A DNA stretch of 64,000 bases from Marsupella aquatica. Taxonomy: Eukaryota > Plantae > Marchantiophyta. A program made the translations under genes and the position numbers. The stretch spans positions 1,759,573 through 1,823,572 of the forward strand of contig OZ316899.1 of the NCBI GenBank assembly GCA_973895155.1, in the 5' to 3' direction. Below, one piece after another: positions 23,289-52,633 of the stretch. The notes below the pieces were generated by a model. It ran no database searches. It worked only from the letters and a program-made list of their open reading frames with translations, and was not told the DNA's origin. How positions within the stretch are numbered: position 1 is the first letter of the stretch; each line of letters opens with the position of its first letter.

Positions 23289-23972
23289 GTGGTGAAATAT
23301 TTTAAAGGTACAAGATTGCTTGTACTTGATATGGATGCATTTCTTTATTATCCTTGTGAGGTATCATCGAAGAGCAACAAGTCGAGATTCATCACGGTGG
23401 ACAATGTTACAATATGTACAAGACCAATTTTCCACCAGTTTATGAAATTTTGTTTTGAGAATTTTAGTGTAGGAATATGGTCACGGATGTCAATAAAAAT
23501 ATTGACAAAATACCTGGCAGTATTACTAAGCGACAGTGAAAGGAGTACCCTCAGGTTTTCCTTTGGGAAAGAAAAATTATCGAGAATCGGTCTCAATGCG
23601 AACCAAGACTTTGTTTATTTGAAACTACTTGAAACTGTGTACCTTAAGATGCCACATGTAATTAGAGAAAATGTGACACTTTTAGATTTGCCAGATAATA
23701 CATTCTGCAACCCTTTTTGGTCATCTTTATATCCTTCTCCATATCATGGAGATGAAGATGATACATTTTTGAGAACTCAACTTATTCCTTATCTTTCTCG
23801 ATTTTACGAGTTTGACAATTTGTTTCATTATATTGAAGACTATTATCCAGATTGGTCCCTACAGTCTTTACATCTAGCTTGGGAGACAAATAAGAAGAAA
23901 TGGAAATCTTGTCCGGTATTTCAAAGGAAGGGAAACGTAGATCATGTCACAAAATTTAGAGCCCATACTTAG
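23289..23972 (+). CDS. FCP1/SCP-like (NIF) HAD-family phosphatase exon
   Basis: LLVLDMDAFL (DxD motif I), TRPIFHQFMKFCFENFSVGIWS, NP...YPSPY...DDTFL...L.PYL; candidate acceptor tacag at 23284-23288; frame open. Confidence 0.72.
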   Translation: MVKYFKGTRLLVLDMDAFLYYPCEVSSKSNKSRFITVDNVTICTRPIFHQFMKFCFENFSVGIWSRMSIKILTKYLAVLLSDSERSTLRFSFGKEKLSRIGLNANQDFVYLKLLETVYLKMPHVIRENVTLLDLPDNTFCNPFWSSLYPSPYHGDEDDTFLRTQLIPYLSRFYEFDNLFHYIEDYYPDWSLQSLHLAWETNKKKWKSCPVFQRKGNVDHVTKFRAHT

Positions 23973-27964: not shown

Positions 27965-30900
27965 TCAATCGATCATGGTGGACTCTAGTAGGGAACATCC
28001 TTCAAGAGTAGCAAGCTGAATTGACCCATTAGCATAAACTTGGTGAACGACATAAGGACCCAACCATCGAGTATGCAACTTGCCTGGAAAATGAGCATAC
28101 CTACTATCATAGAGTAATACCAACTGTCCAGCAAGTAAAGAAGTCGACTTCTTCAACTTCTTGTCATGATGTTGCTTCACTTGAGCTTGCTTCTTCTTCA
28201 CTTGCTTACTTGCTTCCTCCCTGATTTCTTCCAACTCCTCCAGCTGGTAAGCTCTCTCCATCAAACTCTGGTCAGCCTCCATTCTCTCCTCCACACTCAC
28301 CCTCAAAGTAGGCACTTCAAACTCAACAGGTACAAGTGAGTGTTGTCCAAATACTAGGTAGAAAGGACTATGGCCAGTTGTGGTCTTGAAAGCAAGGTTG
28401 TAGGAGTACACAGCTGAGTATAATTTGTCATCCCAATCAGTCTTGTGTGCCGTCACAATTTTGTTCAAGATCTTGCCAATGATGCCATTAGCTCTCTCCA
28501 TTAATCCATTTGCCTTGGGGTGATAGGGAGTGGTCTTCCTATGCTTAATCAAGTACTATGAGCTCCTCCACAACCTCATTCAAGAAGTGAGTCCCCCTAT
28601 CACTAACCAATTCGAGAGGTGGCCCAAATCTGGTAAAATTCTGCTAATACATGAACCTTGATACTGTCAGAGCATTGTCCAGCCTTGCTTGTTGGTCTTG
28701 CCTCTACCCACTTAGTAGCATAATCAGTTGCAAGAAGGATGTATCGATTCCTTCTAGACCTGGTCACAGGAGTGATGGGACCTATGAAATCTATACCCCA
28801 TTTCTCAAAAGGTGCAAGAGGTAAAATGGTGGTAAGAGGGTGATGCCTGGAGTGAGCTGGTTTACCTGTCCTTTGGCAAGGGTCACATCCCCTCACAAAA
28901 AGAATTACATCTTTATGAAGTGTTGGCCACCAATACCTTGCATCAAGGATCTTCCTTGCTGTTGTTGCACTTGCATAATGGCCACCAGCCTCCTCCTCAT
29001 ACATAGCTCTCATCACAATGGAGATTTCCTTCTTCTCCAAACACCTCCTTAGTCTCCCATCAACTCCTTCCTTGTGAAGGACACCCTTCACCAATAAGTA
29101 GGGTCTGACTTTTTGCAGGAAAACAGCAGCCTCCTCTTGGTTCAAATCTCTTGGTAGCCGGGTTGTGAGAAGAAATTGGATGATATCCAAGTACCATGTA
29201 TCCCCTCCACTTCCCACATGAATGAGGTCTTCATCTGGAAACTGATCATCCACCTCCTTCAACTCCTCTTCTCCTTCAATCCTTGAGAAGAAGTCTGCAT
29301 TCCCATGCTTCTTACCAGGCCTGACCCTCACCTCATAATCAAACTCTTGGAGCAACAAGGTTCACCTTGCCACTCTACCAGTTACATCAGGTTTATTCAC
29401 CACATACTTGAGAGCATTGTGATCAGTATGGAAGACCACCTTATAGCCCAACAAGTAGTGCCTAAACTTCTTACAAGAGTAGATGATGCCTAGAGCTTCT
29501 CTATCGGTTGGTGAGTAATTCTTTTCAGCTGGTGCTAAAAGTCTACTTGCAAAGTAGATAGGGTGATCCTTATTCTGGTCATCAAGTTGACTGAGCACCA
29601 CACCAATACAAAAACCAGACACATCCATATACACATGGAATTCTCTACTAACTCCAATCAGGTGCTATCAAGATAGGAGCTTCAACCAACCTGTTCTTCA
29701 ACTCCTGGAAACTTGCTAGCCTCTCAACTGAGGGTTCGACCTCAGCCCCCTTCTTAAGCATGCTGGTTAGGGGTAAAGCTACTTTAGCAAAGTCCTTAAT
29801 GAAGCTTCTATAGTAGTTTAAACATCCCAAGAATCCCCTCAACTCTGTTCCTGAAGTTGGAAATTGGACAGCCACCCAAACAGCCACCTTTTCTTGATCC
29901 ACCTTGATGCCTTTCTTGGATACCTTGTGACCAAGTAGTATCCCTTCTTCCACGCCAAAGAAGCACTTCCCTGGGTGAAGCTTCAAACCAACTTCCCTAC
30001 ATCTTTGGAAGGTCATCCTGAAATGTCAACATGGTCCTTCCTCCTTCCAAAAACAACAAAGTCATCTATGAATACTTCCAAGAACTTTCTCAAGTAGTCA
30101 TGAAAGATATTCATCATCAACCTTTGGAACATACCAGGGACATTACAAAGACCAAAAGGCATCCTCCAAAAGGCATAAATCCCCCACTCAGTGGTAAAGG
30201 CTGTCTTCAACTGGTCCTCCTTCCTTATCCAAATCTGGTTGTAAGCTGAGTACCCATCTAGGAAGCTATACACTTCCCAACCAGCTATTAAGTCAAGTTC
30301 CATATCAGTAAATGGAATGGGATAGTGGTCCTTCTTAGTGGCCTCATTGAGTTTCCTAAAGTCTTGGCAAACTTGGATCTTAGGCTTACATCCAAGCCTG
30401 GTTTCTTTGGTACAATGACAATTGGGGAAACCCACTCACTATTTAACACAGGATAGATGAAACCTGCTTCCAACAATTTGTCTATCTCTTCTTTCACCAT
30501 CAAGTAGTACTTGGGATTCATCCTATATTGCCTTTGTCTCACGGGTGAAGCTCCTAGCATCAAGTCAATTCTATGCTCACCAAGTTCAGGGTTTACACCA
30601 GTAAGATCCAAGTGACTCCAAGCAAACACATCCACATATTCACCTAGCAAATCTTGGATAGTTTTCTCTTCACCTGATCCCAAGGCATTTCCCAAGTTGA
30701 AGGTCTTGTCTTGCTGCACAAAGATGGTTCTGTACTGCTCAGCTCGAATCACCTCTATCTTGTTCCTCATTGTGGAGTCAAAAGTGCCTTCAAGTTGTGC
30801 CAATCTCATGCCTCCATAGACTGGTGCATTTTCAGCACTTAACTCCTCTTTCTCCTTGCTTGAATGCTGGTCTTCCTGAGTCTCATCCTCCTCTAAGTTT

Positions 30901-31115
30901 GCAGCCCCCAATTGGTCCTCCAGCTCCTTTATCTTGAGCTTCAACAAGGCCAAGTGTTTAGCCTTCACCCTCTGGTCATGAACCCCCTTCTTAATCTCAA
31001 CTTGGGGAGCACCCTTGCTGGTCTGATCAGCCTCCTGAGCCACTGTGATAGTGTCTTCTTTGTTGTTCTCCTTGGATGAGGTGGCAGCCTGCTTCACCTC
31101 CTCTAGACTGGTCAC
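27965..31115 (-). pseudogene. Degenerate Gypsy pol (RT-RH-IN), sister family of the plus-strand element
   Basis: Fragments: PVYGGMRL, MNPKYYLMVKEEIDKLL, KDHYPIPF, FIDDF, DVSG...EALG...TDH, WGIDFIGP, TPYHPKANG, GPY; many frameshifts; cut at 31129 by an LTR. Confidence 0.9.
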
Positions 31116-31129
31116 TTCACTGATACTAG

Positions 31130-33141
31130 TGTGATGCCTAGCCAGGACTCACTAGGCCAGTTTAAATGATAAAATAAGGAGTAAACCCTGGAAACACATT
31201 AGTATAGTAGCAAAAAGATGGAAAATATAAACAATTAAGGGTGGCAATGGAACCCGAGCCGAGGCTGGAAGTAAAAACGTCGGGGGAGGGAACATGATTA
31301 GGGTTAGGGCGCGCTAAGTGCCGGCGGCTATAGGTAACTAACGGGAAGAAAGACCAGTCAGGGAGGGGTAAGGATTGATCGCAAGGAATGGTGGCTCATT
31401 TGCAAGCACGAACTAAGCAGATGACTACGGGAGGCCAACTACTGTCCGCTGCTCAGGCAAGCACTCGGGGTGGAAGCAGATAGTGACAATCAACTCAAGA
31501 AGGGTATGAGCAACGTCAATCAAGCTGCTCATTTTTGGGGATGCCTGTTAGAACGGGCAACTGAGTACATTGGGACCTACAAGGACGAAGAATTGGAGAG
31601 AGCCGCTTGAGAATGGCAGGAGCTCGCTCGACTGTGGGAGCTGCAGAAGTTTGCCTTCTTAGGAGGAGAACTCATCACGGCTGAATTCCTGTGGACGCCT
31701 ACTGCCGACAAACTCGACGATCTTCTGTTTTGTGAAGACAGAATAGTCGGCATCTGGGAAGCCATCAACCGCTGCAATGACATACACTGGGAGTTGAAGG
31801 GTAGCACGGAGGGGTGGACGAAGGCAACCGTGCTAGGAGAAACATCCACGGCAGCCGCTATGAAGAGGAAAGGGAACATCAATGAAGAGACCACCCCTGC
31901 AAAGAGAACAAGGTTGGCGGCACCAAGGAAGCCAGCCAAGCAAGGGAGCAGGAGGCAGGAAGAAGCCAAAGAAGAGGAGGTCGACCCCATCAATGCCGTT
32001 CCGACAAGAGATGACACCTGGAAAGGCTGGGCGGCAACCCTCCCCGAGGAAGTGCAATTACACTTTGCACGTGAAGAGGATGCATGCTTTACGGCTATGC
32101 AGACTCGGAAGTACCAAGGCTTCATGGCCGGATCCGGCCTGGAAGCCTTTGTGAAGTTACCATGGCTGAAGCCGGAGGTGCCGGATTCAGACTTATTAGA
32201 ATTTGTGGGATCCTGGGAGCCCGAGTCCAATTCCACAAGGGTGTATGGGAAGGATTTCTATCTCACTCCTCGAGTAATTGCCGAAGTGTTTGGCTTGCCG
32301 ATGGGCAATAAGACCAAAGTTGATACCAGGAAGACCTTGCCTGACAAGGAGTTCTGGTCATTCCCAGGGCCATCAACAAAGAATGGCTTCTTCCAGAACA
32401 CCTACACTAACCCGCACATTGGGGAGATGATCAATTTCTTGCGGGTAACCATGCATTGCAACTTGCTGAGGCCAAAGATCAGCAAGGCACAGGTTTACCT
32501 GGCGGAGAGGCCAGACCCCAGTCGGGACTACAACGGATACCTCCTCACCCAATTGAAGAAAATCTTGAAGGAGGAACAGCAGACGATCGGCAAGGGAAGC
32601 GTGTCCCGGCTTGGCTATCATATGCCGCTGTTGTGCCGGTATGCCCGAAGTCAGATATTTTCCCCGGTACTTCCCCTGCAGGCAAGAGCACCAGAGGAGG
32701 TTCCGGAATAGAGGTCGGCAACAGAGAAACCGACCCAGCCCGACAGTCCTACAATCAAGTAGGTGTTTAGGCTGAGGAAGGAAGACTTGCCGATGCAGCA
32801 ACAGGCATGCAGAACCTGCTGAAATTGCTGGAGAAGGAAAGGAGAACGACAACGGCAACGGGACCGGTACAGAATATTGCTCCCAAAGTTGGCCTAAGCC
32901 GACTTACCAGGGAAAACCCTTTTACAGGGGCCAAGGAGAGAGGGAGGCCGGAACACGAGCCGGGAGTCCAAATGTATGTAGGAGCCTCAAGTCCCGAAGC
33001 CAAGGAGAAGCAGCCCATAGCTCCTGGTTGCGACAGAGAGAAGAAGAGATCAACCTGGAAGCCGGAGGAGGAACCACGACCTGTGATCTGTGAGGCCGTG
33101 TTCACGGAAAAACCAAGAGAGCAGCGGAGGGAGCGCGTAGT
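31130..33141 (+). mobile_element. Older giant-LTR Gypsy: 5' LTR, left part (carries decayed PMD-like ORF)
   Basis: Starts TGTGATGCCTAGCC; diverged homologue of 33142 onward; ORF 31794-32711 with SWEPESNSTRVYGKDFYLTPRVIAEVFGLP; preceded by ACTAG. Confidence 0.88.
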
Positions 33142-33517
33142 TGTGATGCCTAGCCAGGAATCACTCGGCCAGTTAAGTGGGTAAAGCAGGAGTGCACCCT
33201 AGAAACACCTTAGTATAGGGACAAAACAAGGAAAATATAAACAATTAGGGGCGACTATGGAACCCGGGCCAAGGCCGGAGGTAAGGATGCTGGGGGTGAA
33301 AACAAGATTAGGGTTAGGGCGCGCTAAGCGTCGGCGGCTAGGAAGGATCAACGGGAGGAAGGACCGGAAGAGGAGAGGGGTAAGGAGCGCTTGCAGGGAA
33401 TGGTGGCTCATTTGCGAGCACAAACTAGGCAGATGACTACGGAAGGCCAACTACTGTCAGCTGCTTAGGCAAGCACTCGGGGAGAGAGTAGATACCGACG
33501 ATTGACCTAAGGAGGGT

Positions 33518-36500
33518 ATGAGCAACGTCAATCAAGCGGCACATTTCTGGGGATGCCTGTTCGAACGGGCAACTGAGTACATCAAGACTTACGAGGACGA
33601 AGAATCAGAAAGGGCAGCTCGAGAACGGCAGGAGCTTGCTCGATTGTGGGAGCTGCAGAAGACGGCTTTCTTAGGAGGCGAACTCATCAAGGCCGAGTTC
33701 TTGTGGACTCCTACTTCCAATCAGCTCGACGATGTTCTATTTTGTGAAGATAGAGTCGTCGGCATCCGAGAAGCCATCAAACGCTGCAACAACATACACT
33801 GGGAGTTGAAGGGTAGCACGGAGGGGTGGACAAAGGCAACCGTGCTAGGAGAGACATCCACGGGAGCCGGAATGAAGAGGAAGGGAGCCGTCAATGATGA
33901 AGCCACCCCGGCAAAAAGAATGAGGTCGGCGGCACCAAAGAAGCCAGCCGAGCAGCAGAGCAGGAGGCAAGGAGAAGCCAAAGAGGAGGACGATCCCATC
34001 AATGCCATTCCAACCAGGGATGACACCTGGAAAGGCTGGGCGGCAACCCTACCAGAGGAGGTGCAACTACATTTTGCACGGGAGGAGGATGCATGCTTTA
34101 CGGCCATGCAGACCAAGAAGTACCAAGGCTTCATGGCCAAATCCGGCTTAGAGGCCTTTGTAAGATTACCATGGCTGAAGCCGGAGGTGCCGGATTCAGA
34201 CCTATTAGAATTCGTGGGGTCATGGGAACCTGAGACCAATTCCACGAGGATATATGGGAAATGATTTCTATCTTACTCCCAAGGTGATTGCCGAAGTGTT
34301 TGGCTTGCCGATAGGCAATAAGACCAAAGTTGATACCAGGAAGACCTTGCCTGACAAGGAGTTCCGGTCGTTCCCCGGGCCATCAACGAAGAATGGCTTC
34401 TTCCGGAACACCTGCAACAACCCGCACATAGGAGAGATGATCGACTTCTTGCGGGTGGCCATGCATTGTAACTTGCCGAGGGCAGAGATCGGCAAGGCAC
34501 AGGTCTATCTGGCAGAGAGGCCAGACCCAAGCCGGGACTACAACGGGTACCTCCTCAACCAATTGAAGAAGATCTTAAAGGAGGAGCAGCAGGTAATCGG
34601 CCTGGGGAGCGTGTCGCGGCTTGGCTATCACATGCCACTGTTGTGCCGGTATGCCAGAGGTCAGACCTTTGCCCCAGTACTTCCCCTGCAAGTAAGGGCA
34701 CCTGAGGAAGCTCCAGCATCGAGGCTGGTAGCAGAGAAGCCTCAACCACCTGTTAGCCCTACGATTGAGCAGGTGTTTAGGCCAAGGAAGGAAGACTTGC
34801 CGATGCAGCAACCAAGCATGCAGAATTTGCTGAAAATGCTGGAGAAGGAAAAGACGGCACTGGCACCAGCTTCGGCAGCGGCACCAATACAGGACACTGC
34901 CCCAGAGGTCAACCTAAGCAGACTTAGAAGGGAAAACCCCTTTACCAGAAATAAGGAGAGAATCAGGCCAGAATCCAAGCCGGGTGTTCGAATGTATGTG
35001 GGAGTCTCAAGCTCTGAATCTGAGGCAGAATTGCCTGAAGCTCCTACCGGCAAAGAGGAGAGGGAGAAGCCGGAAGTCCAAGAGGTGGAGGAGGCAGTGG
35101 AGGACTGCAGCCATGATAACTCCGGCTATGGGTCGGACCATCACGTTCCAGGAGTAAGGACCTGTGGCCGGTTTATCCCCACACTTCCAAGGGTAGTTCG
35201 AGGGGACCCCAACCAGCAGAGTAGCCCCGAGTCTCCCCCACCAGATGTTGCTCCCCCGAGCTTTGACGGCATAAAGCAGACGGCACAGGAATTCCAGGAG
35301 CGACTTAGGGAAGCAGAAAAGGCAGCCCTGGCTAGGGAAAAGGATTTGCCAGGAGGAGATTGGCCGGAGGACATCAGGCGGCTAGCCAAAAAAGGAAGCA
35401 AACCTCTAGCCACGATTGAAGAGATCCGCAAGACGGCTTGGGAGCAGAGGCCGTGATGGGCGATGCCGATCACTTCTACTTACTCCTCCTACGCTAAAAA
35501 TAGAGCCATGGAGTATGGTGAGATATGTGGGGAACTTGCGCTTGGCATCTTTGGGGAGGAGTTGGAGGTAGGACCCTTTTTCCATAGGGAGCAGTTGGAG
35601 AAGCACCAATCAGAAGAAGCGGTGGCTTTAGAGAGAAGCAAGAAGGACGAGGTCATCCGACGGCTTAGGAGGATGGAAGCCGAGATTGAAGATCTAAGGG
35701 CGGCCAAGAAAGCCCAAGATGAACTGCGGATTAAGCGGCATGAGCTGAACATCATGCAGGGGAAGTTGGACACCGCGCAGGCTGATAATCAGATTATCAA
35801 GGATAAACTGACTCAGACCCAGGGAGAATTGGCCGACGCAATCAAGGACAGGGAGAAATGGAAGAAGGAGCTGAGAGACGCAGAGGAGGCCCATATAGCA
35901 GTCAACAACCGGGTCACGGCGGAGACTCAGAGAAGGGAGAGGGCGCTGAAGGAAGAGGTCGAGGTCATCCGCAGAGCCCTTGAGCAGAAGGAGGCCGAGT
36001 TAGGGAAATCCTATCAAGGGATTATTGCGCTACAGCAGGAGCTTGCGTCCCTGATGGCCAGCTTCAAGGCCGACCTGCGGGAGAAGGACGCTCAGCTCGA
36101 CCAGACCTATGCCAAGATGAATAACATGGAGTCTGAGGTCGTAGCGGAGCTCGACAAGGAGCTAAGAGCAACCCAGGAGGAGAGGGCTACCACCAAGAAG
36201 GAATTGGAGGAAGCCCACAGGGAATTGGAGGAAGCCAAAAACAAGCTGGAGGAGGCACGTAAGGACCTGGATGAGACCCAGGAGGAGTTGGAGGAAATCA
36301 CAAGGAAGATGGAGAACCTACAACGGCGGACCGACAACCAAACAGAGCGGCTGAAGAAACAAGCCGCAGTATTTAAATGCTTAGCTGCATCAAGTCCATC
36401 TCCCGTTGGGGCAAACCAGTTACCCGGGGTGGTAATTGCCGAAGGACCAGCCGTGACACACGGCCCGGTGCCAGACGTTGGCGGCAAGGGGAAGGAACCG

Positions 36501-36902
36501 GCTATGGAGATAGTGAAGAAGAAGAAGCGAAAACCTTTGGGGTCCGGAGGTTATTCGACCCCTCAAGCCGTACTCAAACCGGTACCAACCTCCGGCATGA
36601 ACACGGCAATAGATCCCGCTATCACCAAAGGTGGGGATGGCGCGGCCCAAGCCGAACTACTCAGTAATGAGGCCGGTATCCCAGATCCACCTCTTGAGCA
36701 GCCCGGGGAGGCCGTGGCCGAAGCTGAGGCCGTAGTCGAGGCTGATGTTGAAGCCGATGCCGTTGCCGGGGGTGGACCCAGTCAGGCCGATGGAGAGTTG
36801 ACTCAGTCAAGGGCAGGTAATCTGTCAGAGAACGAACCTACGGCAGTGGCTGAGGTGGAAGCGTTGGGGGCGTCCACTGAGGAACAACCACCGCTGCCAT
36901 GA
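33518..36902 (+). pseudogene. LTR-encoded PMD-like/coiled-coil ORF, 5' LTR copy
   Basis: ORFs 33518-34264, 34254-35456, 35463-36902 joined by a +1 frameshift near 34260 and TGA 35454 (CGA in the 3' LTR). Confidence 0.85.
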
Positions 36903-37812
36903 CGGTGGTGGAGGGCCGCTCCTTTCAAGGAGGGCGGACGTGGAGGGAGGAGGCGTGAGTGGGCAGGGCGGGCTCAGATCTCTAAGTTTAGGATTAGGAT
37001 CAGGACCAGGAGGCGGCCCTGACACTTAGCTTAGTGGGATTACAGTTTCACTGGTAAGAGCAACACTTGTACTCCTGCCTCGTTGTACATAGGTAGATCC
37101 AGTTAGGTAGATTAGGCTTACGCTGCAAAGAATTAGGCGGATCCACTACCAGGATAAGTACGTGGGCAGCGGGGAGCTCAGGGCCTCTTCTTTAGCAAGT
37201 TTTTAGTTTGCACCAGCCGGGCTGGGATCAAGTAGTAAGAGAAGCTCTCGGTTAGTCATACAGTGACCCTTGTGTATATTCATGTTTCCTCATGCCTAAG
37301 AGCTGAATAGAGTTGGCCTCACGGCTTAGTTCGCAGACCTTGTGTATGAGATGTACTGTTTGTATGGCAAGTGCATGGTATGACTCAGTCAGAAGGAGTC
37401 ATTTTGCTATTTGTATGTCGCATTAACTTGTGTGAAGAGTGCCCACATCAACTAATAGAGGAAGGAAAGTAAGCAGGGGAGTGAGAGTTGGATGTGTCGA
37501 GCTGAGAGAGGTCTTAGCGGCTTAACCAAGCCTATTGGGGATCATTCCGGCGGCGGAATCCAAACATACCTAACAAGACGGAGGGGAAGACAAGGGAAGG
37601 CCTAGATTAGGCCGGCTACGTATCTCATGACCCGATGAAGGATCTGTCCAGTATATGTGTGTAAAATGTTAATAGTAGTAGTAGAAGGAGGTTAGCAGCA
37701 TCCCATGCCGCTAAGCCATGGAAACGGCCTCGCCAAGCGCGAAACCTGCGGGAATCGGCTTGCGCTGGGGGGGTTTCTTGGGTTTAGGGAGCCATGGGAC
37801 GCACCACATTTT

Positions 37813-37829
37813 TGGCGCTAGATGGAGGG
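37813..37829 (+). promoter_or_regulatory. PBS, probably tRNA-Asn
   Basis: TGGCGCTAGATGGAGGG 4 nt after the LTR; one mismatch to the complement of plant tRNA-Asn 3' end as recalled. Confidence 0.7.
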
Positions 37830-37877
37830 GGCATTTCTTAAGCCGTGAGATATGAAGTTAGAAAGGAAGCATAGGTA

Positions 37878-39862
37878 ATGACTGACCTTACGCCGAGGGA
37901 AGAAAGAGTGATTCAACGAGAGAGAGCTTGACTGCAGCAGCTCGCCGAGTGGCATGATACACAGCGACTGAGAGGAGCAGAAAGAGCTGGTAGCTCTGAA
38001 GCTGGAATGGCGTCGAAGAAGACATACCAGAAGAAGAGTCGGTAGGAAGAAACGAGTACCCAACCGACATGGGGGAACCAGAGGCACGGCTAGACGAGAG
38101 GCCAAGGACCAGACTGAGCCAACGGTCGCGCATTCATTACAAGGCATTTCATGGGAGAGGAGATGAGGATCCGGACGAATGGTTGGATGATTTCGAGGGA
38201 ACCGCTGCAGCAAATGGAGAATCGGCCATCAAGATGCAGATTCTTCCCGGCCTGTTCAAGGGTGAGGCTAGGCCTTGGTACAGAGCATTGGATGTGGAAG
38301 ATCAAGCTATCTGGGATATCTTCAAAACACTATTTGTTAAGGAGTTTCGACCCATTGGAACTTCAGAACTAGCAGTGCTGAAATTGGGACGACTTCGGTT
38401 CAAGGAGAACAAATCCTTCAGGAAGTTCTTGCAACGCTTTCAGAAACTGGTAAGACGTACAAAGACCAATGCATCTGAAGGTATGCAACTTCAATGGTTG
38501 GTGAATGCTTTGCCACAGAAGATGAGTTTTGCAATTAGGAAGGAGAACCCGGAGACCTTGGCCGAGGCAATTAAGGATATTCAATTATACATTAATGCAG
38601 ATATCACAAGCCGGAAGAAACAGCTTAAGTCTGAGAGTTCCTCATCAAAGGAGGGATCACCCCATAAGAAAAAAGATAAGAAGAACAAACATTCTAAGAA
38701 GTCAAGAAGTGATAACTCAAGCTCGGATAGTGGAAGTAGCAAGAGTGAGTCATCTTCTAGTTCTGAAGAAGAAAAAACTAGGAAAAAAAAGGCCAGAAGG
38801 AGAGGGAAGACGAAAGTCAAGCTGGAGGCTAAGCCACCAGATAACATCGTGGCCCTTACCGAGCAACTTAAGGCTATAATTGCAGAGGTAAAGCCGAAGA
38901 AGAAGGTAGTACAGGATGATAGCTCTGTATGGTGTGCCTTATGTTATAAAACCGGACACCATAAAGATGCGTGTCCTAAACTTAATACTAATCATGTTCG
39001 GCATGTGGCCGAGATCAGACCATGTCAGGGAGAAGTAGAGTACTTTCTAGGAGATGCCGTTGATAGTGTTTTCGGCATCAGTGAGACTGGAGCACGAGAC
39101 CTATCCAACAGACCTGCATCTCTGTGGTCAGGATTAAGGAACAACCCGGGAGAGATGTATCCTCGGATTATTCAGAACCCGTCAGTACCTCCTAGGCTGA
39201 ATGTGCAAAGATTTGCGGCATGCTATAACTGTGGTAAACCTGGCCATTTTGCTAGAGAGTGCCCGAATGCACGCAAACAGGGTGATGGACAACCAGCTCA
39301 GCTATGTATGGGATGCCGAAAAGAGGGTCACATGCTAGGACAATGTCCTACTTGGTTGGCAGGCCTGGCCGCAAATCATAAGCTCTTGCCGGTCAAGGTC
39401 TTGCCGCCAGGTACTACCCCAGGAGGAGTTCAAATCAACCACATCGAACTAGGATGGCAAGCAGATGCCGAGGCAGAGTTTGTACCATCTGATGATGAGG
39501 CCGAAGCCCTATCAACCTTCTCAGAAGAGGATTTAGATCATGATTGCTACCGGGTCTCTACTCGATCTACCAGAAGGAAGGAAAGGTGGGATGGACTGGC
39601 CAAAAATAAAGGGAAGGTTAAGGAGGAAAAGATCGACTCTTCGTCAACATCAACGGAAGGAGAAGGGAGGGCTCCGGCAATACAGGTAAGCCATGAGCCC
39701 ACCAGTGAACCCAATCCTTCACAAGATAGCGACTTCAATCGAGATCATCCTAAGTTGTTCTACCCCTCTGTTACGGCTAGTGTTAAGGAACAACTGCGAG
39801 AATTAGAAACCCTGGAGAATACTGAAGCCATAGCCAAGGATATGAAACGAGTAAAAGCATAG
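37878..39862 (+). pseudogene. Gypsy gag with three CCHC knuckles
   Basis: ATG 37878 (1-bp frameshift versus the older copy at 51476) into ORF 38069-39862; FHGRGDEDPDEWLDDF; CALCYKTGHHKDAC, CYNCGKPGHFAREC, CMGCRKEGHMLGQC. Confidence 0.9.
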
Positions 39863-42800
39863 TTTGCTTCGGAAGATCCAACGGCTGTGGGGACTAGCGT
39901 GAAAAAACAGGCCGAATCCAAGATAGAGACACCACTGGAGAAACCGATAGTTCCCTATGACCTGGCTAAAGATGTACTAGAATCTAGAGTCTCGGCAACA
40001 GTAGGTCAACTACTGAAAAATAGCCCGTACTTCCGGAAGCAATTAAGGAAGGCTATTCTCGGCAAGCCAAGATTACCCAAGGTAGCAACCAAATCCGACG
40101 TGCTGATGATAGAAGAAGATCAAGGAGCCCCGGCTTTACCATTAATGATTCAAGGAGAATTATTACTACGGGTACCCATCGATGGAGGATCAGGGGTATG
40201 TATTATGATTGATTCAACAGCAAAGGGGTGGGGTCTAACACCGGAAATGACTGGAAGAGTGTTGAACATGGCCAATGGGTATCAGGTCATTCCCACGGGA
40301 GTGTTAACCGGCATCAAGACAGAGATAGGAGGTATCTTCTTTAGCATTAACTATGTAGTAATGAAGCCGGTAAACCCTACGTCATTTCGGCTATTAATTG
40401 GCAGGCCATGGCTGTACCTAGCCGAGGTAATAGAAGATTGGGGTAAAAAGCAGTTCACTTTCGGGACCCCCTCTATCACGGTATCCTGGGACACTAAGGA
40501 TGACCGTAGGAAAAGCATAAGGGAAGTAGATGGGTACGACAGTGGACTGGAGTCAGCCGATGAAGTACGTTGGCTAGGATGCCTCAATGACCTAACCGAA
40601 GAAAGTGTCTTTGGACCAGAGGTACCCCCCAGTGGATTATGGCAAGAACCATTGGAAGGTGACTTGGAAGAAGAGGACAAAGAGGTCGAGGACTGCTTTA
40701 CAATAGAATCCACCTTTTTAGCTGCAATTCCGGAGGAAGTAAAGGATGTAGACCAATTGGATGAAACGGCTAAGTGGGGAGCAGTAGCAGGGACAGTGGA
40801 TTTTCTGCAGGCGTTGTGGCAGAGCCGACGGGGTCCACAACGCCATCGATCATCGGCAAGGAATTTAATACCAGGGGATCGGCATACAAGCCAATTACGA
40901 GGGCGGAACAAATTGAGGCCCTATTAGAAGCCAGGAGAGCACAGCAGCCTGACCCTCAGGAGGAAGAGGTGGATGAGATGCACAGACAGAATCTAGAGCC
41001 GAGTCAGGATGGGAAGCCAACAAATAATTCAAAACCGAGTAGAACGGCAAGGGGACAATTTGTGGACAACAAGGAAGAAACCGACTCGGCTAGTACAACT
41101 GAGATTCCAGTTTATGGAGGTATGAGACTAGAGAGGCTGGAAGCCGAGCTGGACCCGAATTTGAAGAAGCAGATTAATATGATCCAAGCGCGGCAATATC
41201 GGAAGCTCGACTTAGGAGAGGGAAGGGAACTGAACTTAGGGAGAAACCTAGCACCTGAGCTCGAGAAAGAGATCAGTGACTTATTGATTGAATTTCAGGA
41301 TGTGTTTGCATGGAGTCACCAAGATCTAAAGGGAGTAGATCCAACATTAGGGGAACATCGAATTGATCTCATGTTAGGAGCCAAATCATTTTGACAACCA
41401 ATTCGAAGGATGAACCCGAAGTATTCCCTGCTGGTCAAAACGGAAATCGACAAACTAGTGGAAGCTGGATTCATCACTCCAGTCCTGCATTCAGACTGGG
41501 TGTCTCCAATTGTGATAGTTCCCAAGAAAGCTGGACCCGATGGTAAACCCAAGATCCGGGTTTGTCAGGATTACAGGAAGCTGAATGAAGCGACGTTAAA
41601 AGACCATTTTCCCTTACCCTTTACTGATATGGTACTAGACATGGTAGCCAGTCATGAACTATATTCATTCATGGATGGGTACTCTGGTTATAACCAAATC
41701 AGGATTCGGCAGGAAGACCAAATCAAGACGGCCTTCATCACGGAATGGGGGATCTATGACTTCAATCGTATGCCGTTTGGACTCTGCAACGCACCAGCTA
41801 TGTTCCAACGATTGATGGTGAACATTTTTCATGATTACTTGATAAAGTTCATGGAAATCTTCATTGATGACTTTGCAGTATTCGGGAAGGCATCGAAACA
41901 TGCTAAATACCTCAGGAAAACCTTCATGAGATGCAGAGAGGTAGGTCTCAAGTTACACCCAGATAAATGTTTCTTTGCAGTAACCGAGGGGGTGCTACTA
42001 GGTCACAAGGTATCAAGGAAGGGCATTGAGATTGACAAAGGTAAGCTAGCAGTATGGCTAGATATCATGCAACCTAAGAACATAAAGGATGTAAGATCCT
42101 TCTTAGGATGCATTGGTTACTATCGCCGGTTCATCAAGGATTTTGCCAAGCTAGCTTTACCATTAACCAACATGCTCAAGGCAGGAGCAGACTTTGAACC
42201 CACACCCGAACGAGTAACAGCGGTGGTAGAATTGAAGCAGATGTTAGTAGAGGCCCCCGTCATGATAGCACCGGACTGGAACAAAGATTTTCATGTTTTT
42301 GTAGATGTCTCGGGCTTCTATATCGGCTCAGTACTAAGTCAGTTGGATGAGAAAGGAAGGGACCATGCCATATACTTCGCAAGCCGTCAAATTGCCGATG
42401 CCGAACGGAACTACTCCACCACAGAGAGAGAAGCATTAGGAGTCATTTATTCCTGTAAAAAGTTTAGGCATTATTTACTAGGGTACAAGGTAATCTTTCA
42501 TACCGATCATGAAAGTTTGAAGTACCTAGTCAATAAGCCGGACCTTACAGGCAGAGTAGCAAGATGGATTTTGCTATTACAGGAGTTTGACTATGAGCTG
42601 AGGATCAAGCCGGGAAAGTTACACGCCAATGCCGACTTCTTTTCAAGAATCACAGGTGAACCTGCCACGGATTGCATCGACGATCGATTCCCCGACGAGG
42701 AGCTATTCGTTGTGGAAATAGCTGATACATGGTACCCTGAGATTTTACATTTTCTCAGCACTTCCAGATTACAGCCAGGGCTAACCCGAAAACAAGCCGC

Positions 42801-44040
42801 AGTCTTTCTGTGGAAGGTCAAACAGTATCAGTACATTAAGGGTGTACTACACAGGTATGGAATCAGCGGCACTATTCAAAGGTGTTTAGAAAAGGGAGAG
42901 GTAAAATGAGTCTTACGGGCTATGCATGGAGAAGAAGCCGGCGGACATTTTGCTCCAGTAACCACGTCTAAAAAGATATTAAATGCCGGTTACTGGTGGC
43001 CCACCTTGCACAAGGATGTCTATCAGTTCATCAAACAATGTGATCCTTGTCAGCGAGCAGGAGGACCAAGGGCGTCTACAAGACATCCATTGCACCCTAT
43101 TCTACCCCTGGCACCATTTGAGAAGTGGGGTATTGATTACATTGGACCGCTGAAACCATTAACCCATCCTCGGAGAAACAAGTATATAATCCTGGCCACG
43201 GATTATGCAACTAAGTGGGTGGAGGCCAGACCGACAACGAAGGATGATGCAATTACTACGGCTAGATTCATGTATGAGCAGATCTTCACCAGGTATGGAG
43301 CACCCCTAGAATTAGTTAGTGATAGAGGAACCCATTTTCTGAATGATATAATTAGTCATTTAAATGAGCAGTATTTAGTTAGACATAGGCCTACTACTCC
43401 CTACCATCCAAAGGCAAATGGGTTGACAAAACGAGCAAACGGAATTATAGGAAAGATATTGAACAAGACAGTAGCTCAGAACAAACTCGATTGGGATGAT
43501 AAATTATTTGCTGCTGTTTTTGCTTATAATTTAGCCTATAAAACCACTACCGGTCATACACCCTTCTTCTTAACCTTTGGACAAGAAGCCCTGGTACCCA
43601 TGCAACTTGAGATACCGACAATTCAAGTTACAATTGAGGAAAGAGCCTCAGCGGAGGAGAGCCTAAAGGAGCGAGAATATAGATTAGAAGCTTTAGAGGA
43701 GGCAAGAATGATTTCAGCTGAGAGAATAGAATATAGACAAAAAACCATGAAGCAGCAGTATGATAAAAAGTTGAAACCAGTTAGTATTCACACCGGTGAT
43801 CTTGTATTACTTTATGATAGTAGGTATAGTAAGTTTCCAGGTAAGCTTTACACTCGCTGGTTAGGACCCTTTAGAGTAACCATGAAGTTCTCCAATGGCT
43901 CCGTACAATTGGCCAACATTACGGGAGAAGTGTATCCAGTTCGCATCCATTATGACCGCCTCAAGAAATACTATATGGACGAAGATGAAGTTGTTCGCGA
44001 GGACGCTTCACAATTAAGTGGGGAGCTATGTGATGCCTAG
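39863..44040 (+). pseudogene. Gypsy pol (PR-RT-RH-IN), disrupted
   Basis: PIDGGSG protease; KDHFPLPF/FIDDF RT; DVSG/EALG/TDH RH; H2C2, WGIDYIG, GPF integrase; frameshifts near 40900 and 41390; TGA 42907. Confidence 0.93.
44014..44028 (+). promoter_or_regulatory. Polypurine tract of the young Gypsy
   Basis: ttaagtggggagcta immediately before TGTG of the 3' LTR. Confidence 0.8.
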
Positions 44041-44143
44041 CCAGGAATCACTCGGCCAGTTAAGTGGGTAAAGTAGGAGTGCACCCTAGAAACACCTTAG
44101 TATAGGGACAAAACAAGGAAAATATAAACAATTAGGGACGACT

Positions 44144-47100
44144 ATGGAACCCGGGCCGAGGCCAGAGGTAAGGACGCTGGGGGTGAAAACAAGATTAGGG
44201 TTAGGGCGCGCTAAGCGTCGGCGGGTAGGAAGGATCAACGGGAGGAAGGACCGGAAGAGGAGAGGGGTAAGGAGCGCTTGCAGGGAATGGTGGCTCATTT
44301 GCGAGCACGAACTAGGCAGACAACTACGGGAGGCCAACTATTGTCAGCTGCTTAGGCAAGCACTCGGGGAGAGAGTAGATACCGACGATCGACCTAAGGA
44401 GGGTATGAGCAACGTCAATCAAGCGGCACATTTCTGGGGATGCCTGTTCGAACGGGCAACTGAGTACATCAAGACTTACGAGGACGAAGAATCAGAAAGG
44501 GCAGCTCGAGAACGGCAGGAGCTCGCTCGATTGTGGGAGTTGCAGAAGACGGCTTTCTTAGGAGGCGAACTCATCAAGGCCGAGTTCTTGTGGACTCCTA
44601 CTTCCAATCAGCTCGACGATGTTCTGTTTTGCGAAGATAGAGTCGTCGGCATCCGAGAAGCCATCAAACGCTGCAACAACATACACTGGGAGTTGAAGGG
44701 TAGCACGGAGGGGTGGACAAAGGCAACCGTGCTAGGAGAGACATCCACGGGAGCCGAAATGAAGAGGAAGGGAGCCGTCAACGATGAAGCCACCCCGGCA
44801 AAAAGAACGAGGTCGGCGGCACCAAAGAAGCCAGCCGAGCAGCAGAGCAAGAGGCAAGGAGAAGCCGAAGAGGAGGACGATCCCATCAATGCCATTCCAA
44901 CCAGGGATGACACCTGGAAAGGCTGGGCGGCAACCCTACCAGAGGAGGTGCAACTACATTTTGCACGGGAGGAGGATGCATGCTTTACGGCCATGCAGAC
45001 CAAGAAGTACCAAGGCTTCATGGCCGGATCCGGCTTAGAGGCCTTTGTAAGATTACCATGGCTGAAGCCGGAGGTGCCGGATTCAGACCTATTAGAATTC
45101 GTGGGGTCATGGGAACCCGAGACCAATTCCACGAGGATATATGGGAAGGATTTCTATCTTACTCCCAAGGTGATTGCCAAAGTGTTTGGCTTGCCGATAG
45201 GCAATAAGACCAAAGTTGATACCAGGAAGACCTTGCCTGACAAGGAGTTCCGGTCGTTCCCCGGGCCATCAACGAAGAATGGCTTCTTCCGGAACACCTG
45301 CACCAACCCGCACATAGGAGAGATGATCGACTTCTTGCGGGTGACCATGCATTGTAACTTGCCGAGGGCAGAGATCGGCAAGGCACAGGTCTATCTGGCA
45401 GAGAGGCCAGACCCAAGCCGGGACTACAACGGGTACCTCCTCAACCAATTGAAGAAGATCTTAAAGGAGGAGCAGCAGGTAATCGGCCTGGGGAGCGTGT
45501 CGCAGCTTGGCTATCACATGCCGCTGTTGTGCCGGTATGCCAGAGGTCAGACCTTTGCCCCAGTACTTCCCCTGTAGGTAAGGGCACCCGAGGAAGCTCC
45601 AGCACCGAGGCCGGTAGCAGAGAAGCCTCAACCACCTGTTAGCCCTACGATTGAGCAGGTGTTTAGGCCAAGGAAGGAAGACTTGCCGATGCAGCAACCA
45701 AGCATGCAGAATCTGCTGAAAATGCTGGAGAAGGAAAAGACGGCACTGGCACCAGCTTTGGCAGCGGCACCAATACAGGACACTGCCCCAGAGGTCAACC
45801 TAAGCAGACTTAGAAGGGAAAACCCCTTTACCGGAAATAAGGAGAGAATCAGGCCGGAATCCAAGCCAGGTGTTCGAATGTATGTGGGAATCTCAAGCTC
45901 CGAATTTGAGGCAGAATTGCCTGAAGCTCCTACCGACGAAGAGGAGAGGGAGAAGCCGGACGTCCAAGAAGTAGAGGAGGCAGTGGAGGACTGCAGCCAT
46001 GATAATTCCGGCTATGGGTCGGACCATCACGTTCCAGGAGTAAGGACCTGTGGCCGGTTTGTCCCCACACTTCCAAGGGTAGTGCGAGGGGACCCCAACC
46101 AGCAGAGTAGCCCTGAGTCTCCCCCACCAGATGTTGCTCCCCCGAGCTTTGACGGCATAAAACAGACGGCACAGGAATTCCAGGAGCGACTTAGGGAAGC
46201 AGAAAAGGCAGCCCTGGCTAGGGAAAAGGATTTGCCAGGAGGAGATTGGCCGGAGGACATCAGGCGGCTAGCCAAAAAAGGAAGAAAACCTCTAGCCACG
46301 ATTGAAGAGATCCGCAAGACGGCTTGGGAGCAGAGGCCGCGATGGGCGATGCCGATCACTTCTACTTACTCCACCTACACTAAAAATAGAGCCATGGAGT
46401 ATGGTGAGATATGTGGGGAACTTGCGCTTGGCATCTTTGGGGAGGAGTTGGAGGTAGGACACTTTTTCCATAGGGAGCAGTTGGAGAAGCACCAATTAGA
46501 AGAAGCGGTGGCTTTAGAGAGAAGCAAGAAGGACGAGGTCATCCGACGGCTTAGGAGGATGGAAGCCGAGATTGAAGATCTAAGGGCGGCCAAGAAAGCC
46601 CAAGATGAACTGCGGATTAAGCGGCATGAGCTGAACATCATGCAGGGGAAGTTGGACACCGCGCAGGCTGATAATCAGATTATCAAGGATAAACTGACTC
46701 AGACCCAGAGAGAATTGGCCGACGCAATCAAGGACAGGGAGAAATGGAAGAAGGAGCTGAGAGACGCAGAGGAGGCCCATATAGCAGTCAACAACCGGGT
46801 CACGGCGGAGACTCAGAGAAGGGAGAGGGCGCTGAAGGAAGAGGTCGAGGTCATCCGCAGAGCCCTTGAGCAGAAGGAGGCCGAGTTAGGGAAATCCTAT
46901 CAAGGGATTATTGCGCTACAGCAGGAGCTTGCGTCCCTGATGGCCAGCTTCAAGGCCGACCTGCGGGAGAAGGACGCCCAGCTCGACCAGACCTATGCCA
47001 AGATGAATAACATGGAGTCTGAGGTCGTAGCGGAGCTCGACAAGGAGCTAAGAGCAACCCAGGAGGAGAGGGCTACCACCAAGAAGGAATTGGAGGAAGC

Positions 47101-47788
47101 CCACAGGGAATTGGAGGAAGCCAAAAACAAGCTGGAGGAGGCACGTAAGGACCTGGATGAGACCCAGGAGGAGTTGGAGGAAATCACAAGGAAGATGGAG
47201 AACCTACAACGGCGGACCGACAACCAAACAGAGCGGCTGAAGAAACAAGCCGTAGTATTTAAATGCTTAGCTGCATCAGGTCCATCTCCCGTTGGGGCAA
47301 ACCAGTTACCCGGGGTGGTAATTGCCGAAGGACCAGCCGTGACACACGGCCCGGTGCCGGACGTTGGCGGCAAGGGGAAGGAACCGGCTATGGAGATAGT
47401 GAAGAAGAAGAAGCGAAAACCTTTGGGGTCCGGAGGTTATTCGACCCCTCAAGCCGTACTCAAACCGGTACCAACCTCCGGCATGAACACGGCAATAGAT
47501 CCCGCTATCACCAAAGGTGGGGATGGCGCGGCCCAAGCCGAACTACTCAGTAATGAGGCCGGTATCCCAGATCCACCTCTTGAGCAGGCCGGGGAGGCCG
47601 TGGCCGAAGCTGAGGCCGTAGCCGAGGCTGATGTTGAAGCCGATGCCGTTGCCGGGGGTGGACCCAGTCAGGCCGATGGAGAGTTGACTCAGTCAAGGGC
47701 AGGTAATCTGTTAGAGAACGAACCTACGGCAGTGGCTGAGGTGGAAGCGTTGGGGGCGTCCACTGAGGAACAACCACCACTGCCATGA
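44144..47788 (+). pseudogene. LTR-encoded PMD-like/coiled-coil ORF, 3' LTR copy
   Basis: ORFs 44144-45577 and 45659-47788 share a frame, separated only by TAG 45575; LLEFVGSWEPETNSTRIYGKDFYLTPKVIAKVFGLP; long heptad-rich C-terminal half. Confidence 0.85.
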
Positions 47789-48699
47789 CGGTGGTGGAGG
47801 GCCGCTCCTTTCAAGGAGGGCGGACGTGGAGGGAGGAGGCGTGAGTGGGCAGGGCGGGCTCAGATCTCTAAGTTTAGGATTAGGATCAGGACCAGGAGGC
47901 GGCCCTGACACTTAGCTTAGTGGGATTGCAGTTCCACTGGTAAGAGCAACACTTGTACTCCTGCCTCGTTGTACATAGGTAGATCCAGTTAGGTAGATTA
48001 GGCTTACGCTGCAAAGAATTAGGCGGATCCACTACCAGGATAAGTACGTGGGCAGCGGGGAGCTCAGGGCCTCTTCTTTAGCAAGTTTTTAGTTTGCACC
48101 AGCCGGGCTGGGATCAAGTAGTAAGAGAAGCTCTCGGTTAGTCATACAGTGACCCTTGTGTATATTCATGTTTCCTCATGCCTAAGAGCTGAATAGAGTT
48201 GGCCTCATGGCTTAGTTCGCAGACCTTGTGTATGAGATGTACTGTTTGTATGGCAAGTGCATGGTATGACTCAGTCAGAAGGAGTCATTTTGCTATTTGT
48301 GTGTCGCATTAACTTGTGTGAAGAGTGCCCACATCAACTAATAGAGGAAGGAAAGTAAGCAGGGGAGTGAGAGTTGGATGTGTCGAGCTGAGAGAGGTCT
48401 TAGCGGCTTAACCAAGCCTATTGGGGATCATTCCGGCGGCGGAATCCAAACATACCTAACAAGATGGAGGGGAAGACAAGGGAAGGCCTAGATTAGGCCG
48501 GCTACGTATCTCATGATCCGATGAAGGATCTGTCCAGTATATGTGTGTAAAATGTTAATAGTAGTAGTAGAAGGAGGTTAGCAGCGTCCCATGCCGCTAA
48601 GCCGTGGAAACGGCCTCGCCAAGCGCGAAACCTGCGGGAATCGGCTTGCGCTGGGGGGGTTTCTTGGGTTTAGGGAGCCATGGGACGCACCACAGTAGT

Positions 48700-51407
48700 C
48701 CAAGCCGTGGAGGAGGTGGTAGAAGGCTACGACAATGATGACTCCGGCTACGGGTTGGACCATCATGTTCTAGGAGTAAGGACCTATGGCAGGTTCATCC
48801 CCACTCTTCCAAGAGTAGTTTGAGGGGACCCCACCCAACAGAGCAGCCCCGAGTCTCCCCCACCAGATGTCGCACCCCCGAGCTTTGACGGCATAAAATA
48901 GATGGCACAAGAGTTTGAGGAGTGACTCAGGGAGGAAGAGAGGGCAGCCCTGGCTAGGGAGAAAGATTTATCAGGGGGAGAATGGCAAGAGCACATCAGG
49001 CGGCTTGCAGAAAAACAAAGCAGCCCTCCAGCCACGATAGAAGAAATCCGCAAGTTGGGAACAAAGGCCGGGATGGTTGATGCCGATGACTTCTACTCAC
49101 TCCACCTATGCTAAAGAAAGAGGCATGGAGTACGGGGAGATGTGTGGGGAACTTGCACTCATCATCTTTGGGGAGGAGTTGGACCAGGGACCCTTTTCCA
49201 GAGGGAGATGTTGGAGAAGCGCCGATTAGAAGAAGCGGTGGCTTTGGAGAGAAGCAAGAAGGACGAGGTCATCCGTCGGCTTAGGGCAAGGGAAGCCGAG
49301 GTAGAAGACCTGAAGGCGGCCAAGAAAGCCCAAGATGAGCTGCGGATTAAGCGGCATGAGCTAAACATCATGCAGGGGCAATTGGATACCGTGCAGTCTG
49401 ATAATCAGATTATCAAGGATAAACTGACTCGGACCCAAGGAGAGTTGGCCGATGCGATCAAGGAGAAGGAGAAGTGGAAGCGAGAGCTCAGAGATGCAGA
49501 GGAGGCCCACATAGCAGCCAACAACCAGGCCATGGTGGAGACGTAGAGAAGGGAGAGGGCATTGAAGGGGGAGCTCGAGGATATCCGCGGAGCCCTTGAG
49601 CAGAAGGAGGCCGAGTTAGGGAAATCCTATCAGGCGATTGTGCTACGACAGGAGCTTGCATCCCTGACGGCCAGCTTCAAGGCCGACCTCCGTGAGAAAG
49701 ACGACCAGCTTGACCAGACTTATGCCAAGATGAATAAAATGGAGTTTGAGGTCGTAACGGAGCTTGACAAGGAGCTAAGAGCAACCCAAGAAGAGAGGGC
49801 TACCTTAAAAAAGGAGCTAGAGGAAGCCCAGAGAGAGTTGGAGGAAGCCCAGAAGGAGCTGGAGGAGGCGTGCAAGGACCTGGACAAATTGCAAGAGGAG
49901 TTGGAGGAAAGCACGCGGAAGATGGAGAACTTACAGTGGCGAGCCGACAACCAAACGGAGCGGCTGAAGAAACAAGCTGCAGTATTTAAGTGCTTGGCTT
50001 CCTCAAGTCCAACTCCAATAGGGGCAACCAAGTTGCCAGGAGTAGTACTGGCCAAAGGACAAGCCGAGACACTCGCACCGGTGCCGGAGGTAAGTGGCAA
50101 GGGGAAGGGACCAGCTGCCGAAACAGGGAAGAAGAAAAAGCAAAAACCTTTTGGGTCAGGGAGTAACACGGCTTCTCAAGCCGTCGTGACCAAGGAGTTA
50201 AACCCGGCACCAACCTTAGGCAAGGTCACGGCAAAGGATCCAACTGTCCTACAAGGCGGGGATGGCAAGGGCGAAGCCGGAATGCTCAGTGATGAGGCGG
50301 TATACCAAATCCACCACTAGAGCAGGCCCGGGAAGCCATAGCCATATCGGAGGCCGTGGCCGATGTTGAGGCTGAAGCCGAGGGGGGACCCAATCAGGCC
50401 GATGGAGAGTTGACTCGGTCCGGAGCAGGTAATCTGTCAGAGGATGCGCCTATGGTAGTGGCTGCGGAAGAAGTGTTGGGGGCGTCCATTGAGGATCAGC
50501 CACCACTACCATGACGGTGGTGGAGGGCCGCTCCTTTTAAGGAGGGCGGACGTGGAGGGAGAGGCATGAGTGGGCAGGGCGGGCTCAGATCTCCAAGTTT
50601 AGAATTAGGATCAGGACCGGGAGGCGGCCCTGACACTTAGCTTAGTGGGATTGCAGATCCACTGGTAAGAGCAACACTTGTGCTCCTGCCTCGCTGTACA
50701 TAGGTAGATTACGAACATGTTAGATTAGGCTTACGCTGCAAGGAATTGGGTGGATCCACTGCCAGGATAAGTACCTGGGCAGCGGGGGGTTCAGGGCCTT
50801 CTTCCTTAGCAAGTTTTTAGTGCACCAGCAGGGCTGGGATCAAGTAGTTAAAGAAGCTCTCGGTTAGTTATGATGTGACCCTTGTGTATATTCATGTTTC
50901 CTCATACCTAAGAGATGAATAGAGTTGGCCTCACGGCTTAGTTCGCAGATCTTGTGTATGAGAAGTACTGCTTGTATGGCAAGTGCATGGTATAACTCAG
51001 TCAGAAGGAGTCATTTTGCTATTTGTGTGTCGCATTAACTTGTTTGAAGATTTCCCACATCAACCAAGAAGGGAGTAAGCAAGGTAGTAAGAGTTGGATG
51101 TGTCGAGCTGAGAGAGGTCTTAGCGGCTTACCCAAGCCAGTTGGGGATCATTCCGGTGGCGGAATCCAAACATACCTAAAGGAAGACCAGGAGAGGAGGA
51201 CAAGGGAAGACATAGAAGAGGCCGGCTATGTATCTCATGACCCGATGAAGGATCTGTCCAGTATATGTGTGTAAAATGTTAGTAGAAGGAAGTTAGCAGC
51301 GTCCCATGCCGCTAAGCCGCAAAACCGGCCTCGCCAAGAGAAAAACCTGCAGGAATCGGCTTGTGCAGGGGGGTTCTTGGGTTCAGGGAGCCAGTGGACG
51401 CACCACA
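48700..51407 (+). mobile_element. Older giant-LTR Gypsy: 5' LTR, right part
   Basis: Resumes after TSD GTAGT; decayed coiled-coil ORFs 49142-50320; ends GCACCACA. Confidence 0.88.
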
Positions 51408-51475: not shown

Positions 51476-52633
51476 ATGACTGAACCTACGCCGAGGGAGG
51501 AAAGAGCGATTCAACGGGAGAGAGTTCGTCTGCAACAGCTCACTGGGTGGCATGACACACAGCGACTGAGAGGGGCAGAAAGAGCTAGTAGCTCCAAAAT
51601 TGAAAGTGGCATCGAAGAAGAAATACTAGAAGAGGAGTCCGTAAGGAGAAGTGAGTCCATTACCGACATGGGGGAACCGGAGGCACGGCCAGAAGAGAGG
51701 CTAGGAACCAGACTGAGCCAAAGGTCGCGCATTCATTACAAGGCATTTCATGGGAGAGGAGATGAGGATCCAGACGAATGGTTGGATGACTTTGAGGGAA
51801 CCGCTGTAGCAAATGGAGAATCAGCCATCAAGATGCAGATTCTTCTTGGCCTGTTCAAGGGTGAGGCAAGGCCTTGGTACAGAGCACTGGATGTGGAAGA
51901 TCAAGCCATCTGGCATACCTTCAAATCACTATTTGTCAAGGAGTTTTGACCCATTGGAATCTCAGAGCTAGCAGTGTTGAAGTTGGGACGACTTTGGTTC
52001 AAGGAGAACAAATCCTTTAGGAAGTTCTTGCAATGCTTTCAAAAGCTGGTAAGACGTACAAAGACCAATGCATCTGAAGGTATGCAACTTCAATGGTTGG
52101 TGAATGCTTTACCACAGAAGATGAGTTTTGCAATTAGGAAGGAAAACCCAGAGACTTTAGCCGAGGCAATTAGGGATATTCAATTGTACATTAATGCAGA
52201 TATCACAAGCCAGAAGAAATAGCTCAAGTCTGAGAGTTCCTCATCGGAGGAAGGATCACCACATAAGAAAAAAGATAAGAAAAAGAAACATTCTAAGAAG
52301 TCAAGAAGTGATAACTCAAGCTGGGATAGTGGAAGTAGCAAGAGTGAGTCATCTTCTAGTTTTGAAGAAGAAAAATCTAGGAAAAAGAAGGGCAAAAGGA
52401 GGGGGACGTTGAAAGTCAAGCTAGAGGCTAAAACGCCAGATAACATTGTAGCTCTTACCGAGCAGCTTAAGGGTATAATAGCAAAGCTAAAGCCAAAGAA
52501 GAAAGTAGTACTTGAAGATAGCTCTGTATGGTGTGCCTTATGTTATAAAACCGGACACCATAAAGATGCATGTCCTAAACTCACTACTACTCATGTTTGG
52601 CATATAGCTGAGGTCAGACCGTGTCAAGGAGAA
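51476..52633 (+). pseudogene. Older Gypsy gag, 5' part
   Basis: Colinear with 37878 onward; stops at 51947 and 52220; first CCHC knuckle. Confidence 0.9.

Follow-up and report, generated by a model that had tools for sequence, protein, structure and literature searches.

An accessory gene under purifying selection lies within both long terminal repeats of a Ty3/Gypsy retrotransposon from Marsupella aquatica

Long terminal repeats (LTRs) are usually treated as non-coding, and the formation of solo LTRs is viewed as a means by which the host disarms an element. Genes do occur in retroviral LTRs (sag of mouse mammary tumour virus (MMTV), and nef of HIV by overlap), and Cassandra LTRs contain a 5S RNA; such sequences are duplicated within each element and left behind in solo LTRs. 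In plants, Ty3/Gypsy elements are known to carry extra open reading frames (ORFs) with plant mobile domain (PMD), Transposase_28, Athila ORF-1 or SMC-like domains, which are described as internal and as lying mostly between pol and the 3' LTR (PMC7264820, PMC11963269, PMC11728184, PMC6317226). Of the 434 PMD hits reported among such extra ORFs, 431 belong to Ogre 3'-reverse frames, and LTRs of up to ~5 kb are on record (PMC6317226). A 2026 maize preprint still terms LTRs and the transcripts contained in them non-coding (PMC13192763). No plant element with a protein gene in its LTR was found in the literature searched, although the REXdb per-element table, which lay outside that search, could hide such ORFs as paired 5' and 3' extra ORFs. 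Here, a 64-kb window (the whole stretch of DNA analysed, from contig OZ316899.1 of Marsupella aquatica) was found to contain a 15.55-kb Ty3/Gypsy element (33142-48694) whose two LTRs each carry a copy of a large accessory ORF.

The LTRs (33142-37808 and 44029-48694 by self-BLAST) are 98.35% identical over 4667 nt, differing by 76 substitutions and one indel (Kimura two-parameter distance 0.0165). Both start with TG and end with CA, and GTAGT on either flank forms a 5-bp target site duplication (TSD). The primer binding site (PBS) starts at 37813, past a 4-nt spacer, and a polypurine tract (PPT) at 44016-44025 ends 3 nt upstream of the 3' LTR, so the boundaries that an earlier note on this DNA had drawn from TSD, PBS and PPT stand. 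The joint between the LTR end and the PBS side (48694 to 37809) is present in contigs from all four public runs compared, indicating that other copies have the same boundary. Between the LTRs, gag-pol fills 6.2 kb, its reverse transcriptase (RT), RNase H and integrase following the Ty3 order (Pfam); several stops and frameshifts show that this copy is dead. The integrase frame crosses the PPT and terminates 12 nt within the 3' LTR, and an internal 3' region is thus absent.

The accessory ORF (44405-47788) encodes 1127 residues, with an X at its one stop, and occupies 72.5% of the LTR, downstream of the PPT and before the PBS, in line with the earlier proposal of an ORF lying wholly inside the LTR and filling about three quarters of it. 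Its lesions also lie where they had been placed, at sites that differ between the LTRs: in the 5' copy the frame is interrupted near 34259 by a 1-nt indel and at 35454 by a TGA, in the 3' copy at 45575 by a TAG. The target of the younger insertion was the 5' LTR of an older family member (31130-33141 plus 48700-51407; 4720 nt in total). This older LTR contains a homologous ORF, is followed by a PBS and gag of its own, and represents the diverged third LTR that the note had recognized; all three ORF copies in the window are broken. In the comparison with this old-LTR homologue, a check the note had proposed, dN/dS is 0.247 over 1091 codons and thus not near 1, ranging from 0.116 in the core domain (residues 166-390) to 0.59 in the C-terminal tail, and the predicted coiled coil was recovered at residues 692-951. 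As controls, gag gave 0.176 and 0.150, shifted forward frames 0.92 and 1.11, the non-coding LTR tail 0.73-1.03, and the one reverse frame sharing third positions with the ORF 0.32. Third codon positions account for 280 of the 551 differences. Among the 16 indels found within the ORF in public contigs, 12 were listed, and 11 of these keep the frame or are compensated a short distance away; of the 38 found over the internal region plus LTR, 10 of the 12 listed fall in the LTR tail. The family is very abundant in runs of two organisms, with 19,038 contigs aligning to the ORF in run X2. The accessory ORF is therefore a real gene under purifying selection, with gag-like constraint, copied into both LTRs. 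The features are as follows, all on the plus strand.

33137-33141 (+): TSD, 5' copy (GTAGT)
33142-37808 (+): 5' LTR, 4667 nt, TG..CA
33518-36902 (+): accessory ORF, 5' LTR copy, broken by the 1-nt indel near 34259 and a stop at 35454-35456
37813-37831 (+): PBS, presumably of the tRNA-Asn type
37878-44040 (+): gag-pol with gag, zinc knuckle, protease motif (by eye), RT, RNase H and integrase; stops and frameshifts
44016-44025 (+): PPT
44029-48694 (+): 3' LTR, 4666 nt, TG..CA
44119-44128 (+): sole TATAA of the LTR, candidate accessory-gene promoter, unchanged in the old LTR
44405-47788 (+): accessory ORF, 3' LTR copy, 1127 codons, single in-frame stop at 45575-45577
44405-44734 (+): conserved N-terminal helical region (residues 1-110), dN/dS 0.145
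44885-45574 (+): core globular domain (residues 161-390), PMD/DUF1985(VANC)/Transposase_32/Athila-ORF1-like, dN/dS 0.116 (residues 166-390)
46478-47257 (+): coiled-coil region (residues 692-951), dN/dS 0.187
47402-47419 (+): basic cluster KKKKRK, resembling a nuclear localization signal
47789-48694 (+): non-coding LTR tail, 8.4% diverged from the old LTR, likely site of the poly(A) region, R and U5
48695-48699 (+): TSD, 3' copy
31130-33141 (+): older same-family 5' LTR, left part, with the homologous ORF start and core domain
48700-51407 (+): older LTR, right part, with the remainder of the homologous ORF, then PBS and degenerate gag

Of the two starts suggested for an intact consensus ORF, 44405 is retained and 44144 is rejected, since the 44144-44404 extension has a dN/dS of 0.82, three stops among the compared codons and a 2-nt indel relative to the old LTR. 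Separately, the differences between the two LTRs are unevenly distributed, with 59 in the first 2471 nt versus 17 in the last 2195 nt (a cut picked post hoc); polarised by the old LTR, they split equally between both LTRs, possibly reflecting partial gene conversion or uneven methylation.

For the encoded protein, the PMD resemblance first proposed probably holds at the superfamily level and fails at the profile level. Neither the core domain nor its 23 phmmer hits gave a Pfam match to PF10536, PF20167, PF03078 or PF09331, the first two being profiles the note had put forward. However, the ESM neighbours of the core domain fall in the PMD/DUF1985/Athila-ORF1 group, and its best structural match, weak but spanning the whole domain, is VANC21 (PDB 9LNK), suggesting that the domain likely belongs to the PMD/VANC structural superfamily. 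In addition, the N-terminal region (residues 1-110) is weakly similar to the N-terminus of a Calypogeia protein (P0134). No transmembrane helix of the kind found in env-like ORFs was detected in the accessory protein (maximum 19-residue hydropathy 0.87).

The non-coding parts of the LTR contain candidate regulatory signals. TATAA occurs once in the LTR, at 44123 (LTR position +95), which places it 282 nt upstream of the ATG, and the old LTR retains it without change. Within the LTR, conservation is highest in the 906-nt tail, which diverges from the old LTR by 8.4% (8-10%, against 11-29% elsewhere) and is T/G-rich in its middle; both properties fit poly(A) signals, R and U5 being located there, which is likely. 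The tail divergence is also far below that of synonymous sites (dS 0.48 in the ORF and 0.24-0.28 in gag), and the tail may represent an ancestral short LTR or may have been exchanged between subfamilies. Telobox-like TTAGGG motifs cluster at 44132-44206, just past the TATA, and at 48669-48675, near the LTR end. In a post hoc count, the 1283 non-coding nt contain 20 occurrences of TTAG, where 8 would be expected; it is a candidate promoter or binding motif.

With regard to lineage, TG..CA LTRs, TSD, PBS, PPT and gag followed by RT-RNase H-integrase identify the element as Ty3/Gypsy. No chromodomain was found in 42910-44037 (Pfam, E<=0.1), as would mark a chromovirus, and Pfam detected no additional RNase H in gag-pol, the hallmark of Tat elements (TatI-III, Ogre, Retand). 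Phygy and Selgy elements have a 4-bp TSD, a short length and no extra ORF, unlike the 5-bp TSD and 15.55-kb length observed here, although their internal region is likewise filled by pol. The 5-bp TSD and the lack of an additional RNase H are shared with Athila as defined in REXdb, whereas the extra ORF placed in Athila between pol and the 3' LTR lies here downstream of the PPT, in the LTR. Athila PBSs are described as matching tRNA-Asp or tRNA-Asn, with Asn accounting for 12% (PMC6317226). The closest RT relatives reach 73% identity, and a Riccia protein shows 53% over the query. In a quick tree of 92 rows without labelled REXdb references (the focal sequence, the 90 of 120 hits that were long enough, and one outgroup), the RT falls with Riccia and further proteins in a group with 98% SH-aLRT support, apart from the angiosperm rows. 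From the sequence by itself, the host is likely a non-seed plant such as a liverwort. Given the 5-bp TSD, the lack of an additional RNase H and the sense downstream ORF, Athila fits better than Phygy, Selgy or Tat as these are described (PMC6317226).

With moderate confidence, and by analogy with VANC (PMC5735166), the ORF can be read as a selection-maintained U3 gene of an Athila-like Ty3 element, whose product would bind element DNA, self-oligomerise and counter host silencing. An Athila-type sense 3' extra ORF may have come to sit downstream of a working PPT, becoming part of U3. The gene would then be transcribed from the TATA at LTR +95, ending in the conserved tail and independent of gag-pol; the core domain would bind motifs in the element's non-coding DNA, the coiled coil would multimerise the protein, and solo LTRs would keep the whole cassette and could supply the product in trans. 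Two points weigh against this anti-silencing role: the non-coding parts of the LTR contain no tandem array and no over-represented 5-8-mer of the kind that would correspond to VANC-type target motifs, and the same fold is reported to serve silencing-promoting host proteins (PMC5418596). A more tentative extension is that a VANC-like factor in the LTR would make every solo LTR a trans anti-silencing cassette, and that Ty3 elements of non-seed plants already used the PMD/VANC fold as an accessory weapon before the PMD and VANC families of angiosperms arose.

Alternatively, the product may be an accessory factor of the replication cycle, acting in nuclear export of genomic RNA, as a particle scaffold or as a chromatin tether of the integration complex, a reading that is possible but doubtful. 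Purifying selection would suit any cis-useful function, a 260-residue coiled coil would suit a scaffold, retrovirus-like accessory roles have been proposed for extra ORFs (PMC7264820), and the Athila ORF-1 family is entered as being of unknown function (PMC6317226); however, the one lead from structure is a DNA-bound anti-silencing protein, and DUF1985 and PMD, which are among the named neighbours, both act on chromatin. A separate question concerns placement. If the TATA at +95, the only one in the LTR and conserved in the old copy, were the sole promoter, the ORF would lie in a very long R or U5 as the first ORF of the genomic RNA rather than in U3. This arrangement appears unlikely, as it would need ~4.5 kb of strong-stop DNA and read-through of the putative T/G-rich poly(A) region in the 5' LTR, and the most conserved part is the tail, R/U5 being usually more conserved than U3 (PMC3601003). 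Less probable still is a DNA-binding repressor or tuner of the element, self-limiting or host-serving: the host PMD proteins MAIN and MAIL1 are needed for silencing of transposable elements (PMC5418596), and a repressor retained in solo LTRs would give copy-number feedback, but a preprint also reports that MAIL1, MAIN and MAIL2 act against Polycomb silencing at the promoters they target (bioRxiv 2024.09.27.615353), and the great abundance of the family argues against repression. Finally, the ORF might be a captured passenger without function, or an artefact created by the nesting or tandem arrangement of elements, as the three broken copies and the nest of elements in this region might suggest; this is highly improbable given the concordant TSD, PBS, PPT and TG..CA ends, the third-position excess with dN/dS of 0.25, and the prevalence of frame-keeping indels in other copies.

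Elsewhere in the window, an inverted related Ty3 element (27965-31148, minus strand), with pol 66% identical and a similar PPT, is interrupted by the older element, and no HMM match to the accessory domain was found in its flank. A second Ty3 element (52633-61273, minus strand), with 1.5-kb LTRs 92.5% identical and a chromovirus-like pol, is nested in the older element's gag, and a Copia element (16882-22641, minus strand) has 146-bp LTRs 99.3% identical and an open frame of 1218 codons. In addition, the window contains a long inverted duplication (3121-14528; 3121-7787 versus 11663-14528, 88-94% identity), a purine-rich repetitive open frame of 479 codons without a Pfam match (15195-16634), a NIF phosphatase-like frame (23259-23972) and a LINE ORF1-like frame with DUF4283 and a zinc knuckle (61768-62910).

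According to one account, the ancestry of PMD domains in retrotransposons and in hosts is fully open (PMC5418596). A gene of the PMD/VANC fold in this liverwort-related lineage of Ty3 elements would extend that family beyond angiosperms. Solo LTRs would retain the gene, which takes up three quarters of the LTR and is under constraint at the level of gag. The element thus provides a concrete test case for whether LTR retrotransposons possess their own sequence-specific anti-silencing factors.

Among known systems, MMTV sag, HIV nef and the Cassandra 5S RNA differ in that their products are unrelated and far smaller, belonging to animal retroviruses or an RNA gene rather than being a 1127-residue plant protein. 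Athila (PF03078, PF20167; PMC6317226) resembles this element in its 5-bp TSD, a non-chromovirus pol that lacks an additional RNase H, a sense ORF past pol, the domain group indicated by ESM neighbours, and a coiled-coil extension. However, descriptions of Athila place the ORF after pol and before the 3' LTR, whereas here it lies in the LTR, twice per element, with pol running through the PPT; moreover, the accessory ORF has no Pfam match and the RT groups with Riccia and further proteins, apart from the angiosperm cluster. The PMD-A ORF of Ogre and the TRP28/SMC-like extra ORFs of Retand are likewise large PMD-type or coiled-coil accessory ORFs in non-chromovirus Ty3 elements with long LTRs (PMC6317226, PMC11963269, PMC7264820, PMC5418596), but are reported as nearly all antisense, internal and from angiosperm Tat elements with additional RNase H, in contrast to the sense, LTR-borne ORF found here without it. 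Retrosat2/RIRE3 ORF0 is also an extra ORF of a plant Ty3 element with LTRs >3 kb; set against it by description only, ORF0 lies upstream of gag-pol, is grass-specific, and is not placed in the LTR in the available description (PMC3485330). VANC21/VANC of the VANDAL Mutator-like elements (PMC5735166; PDB 9LNK) shares a weak whole-domain structural match, a globular domain with predicted coiled-coil multimerisation and the status of a transposon-encoded accessory factor, but VANC is carried by a DNA transposon, is described as dicot-specific, belongs to DUF1985/DUF287 by sequence and has tandem target motifs, none of which were found here. The VANC-type anti-silencing link is plausible but unproven; the architecture itself is real and unusual, a variation on the known theme of plant Ty3 accessory ORFs.
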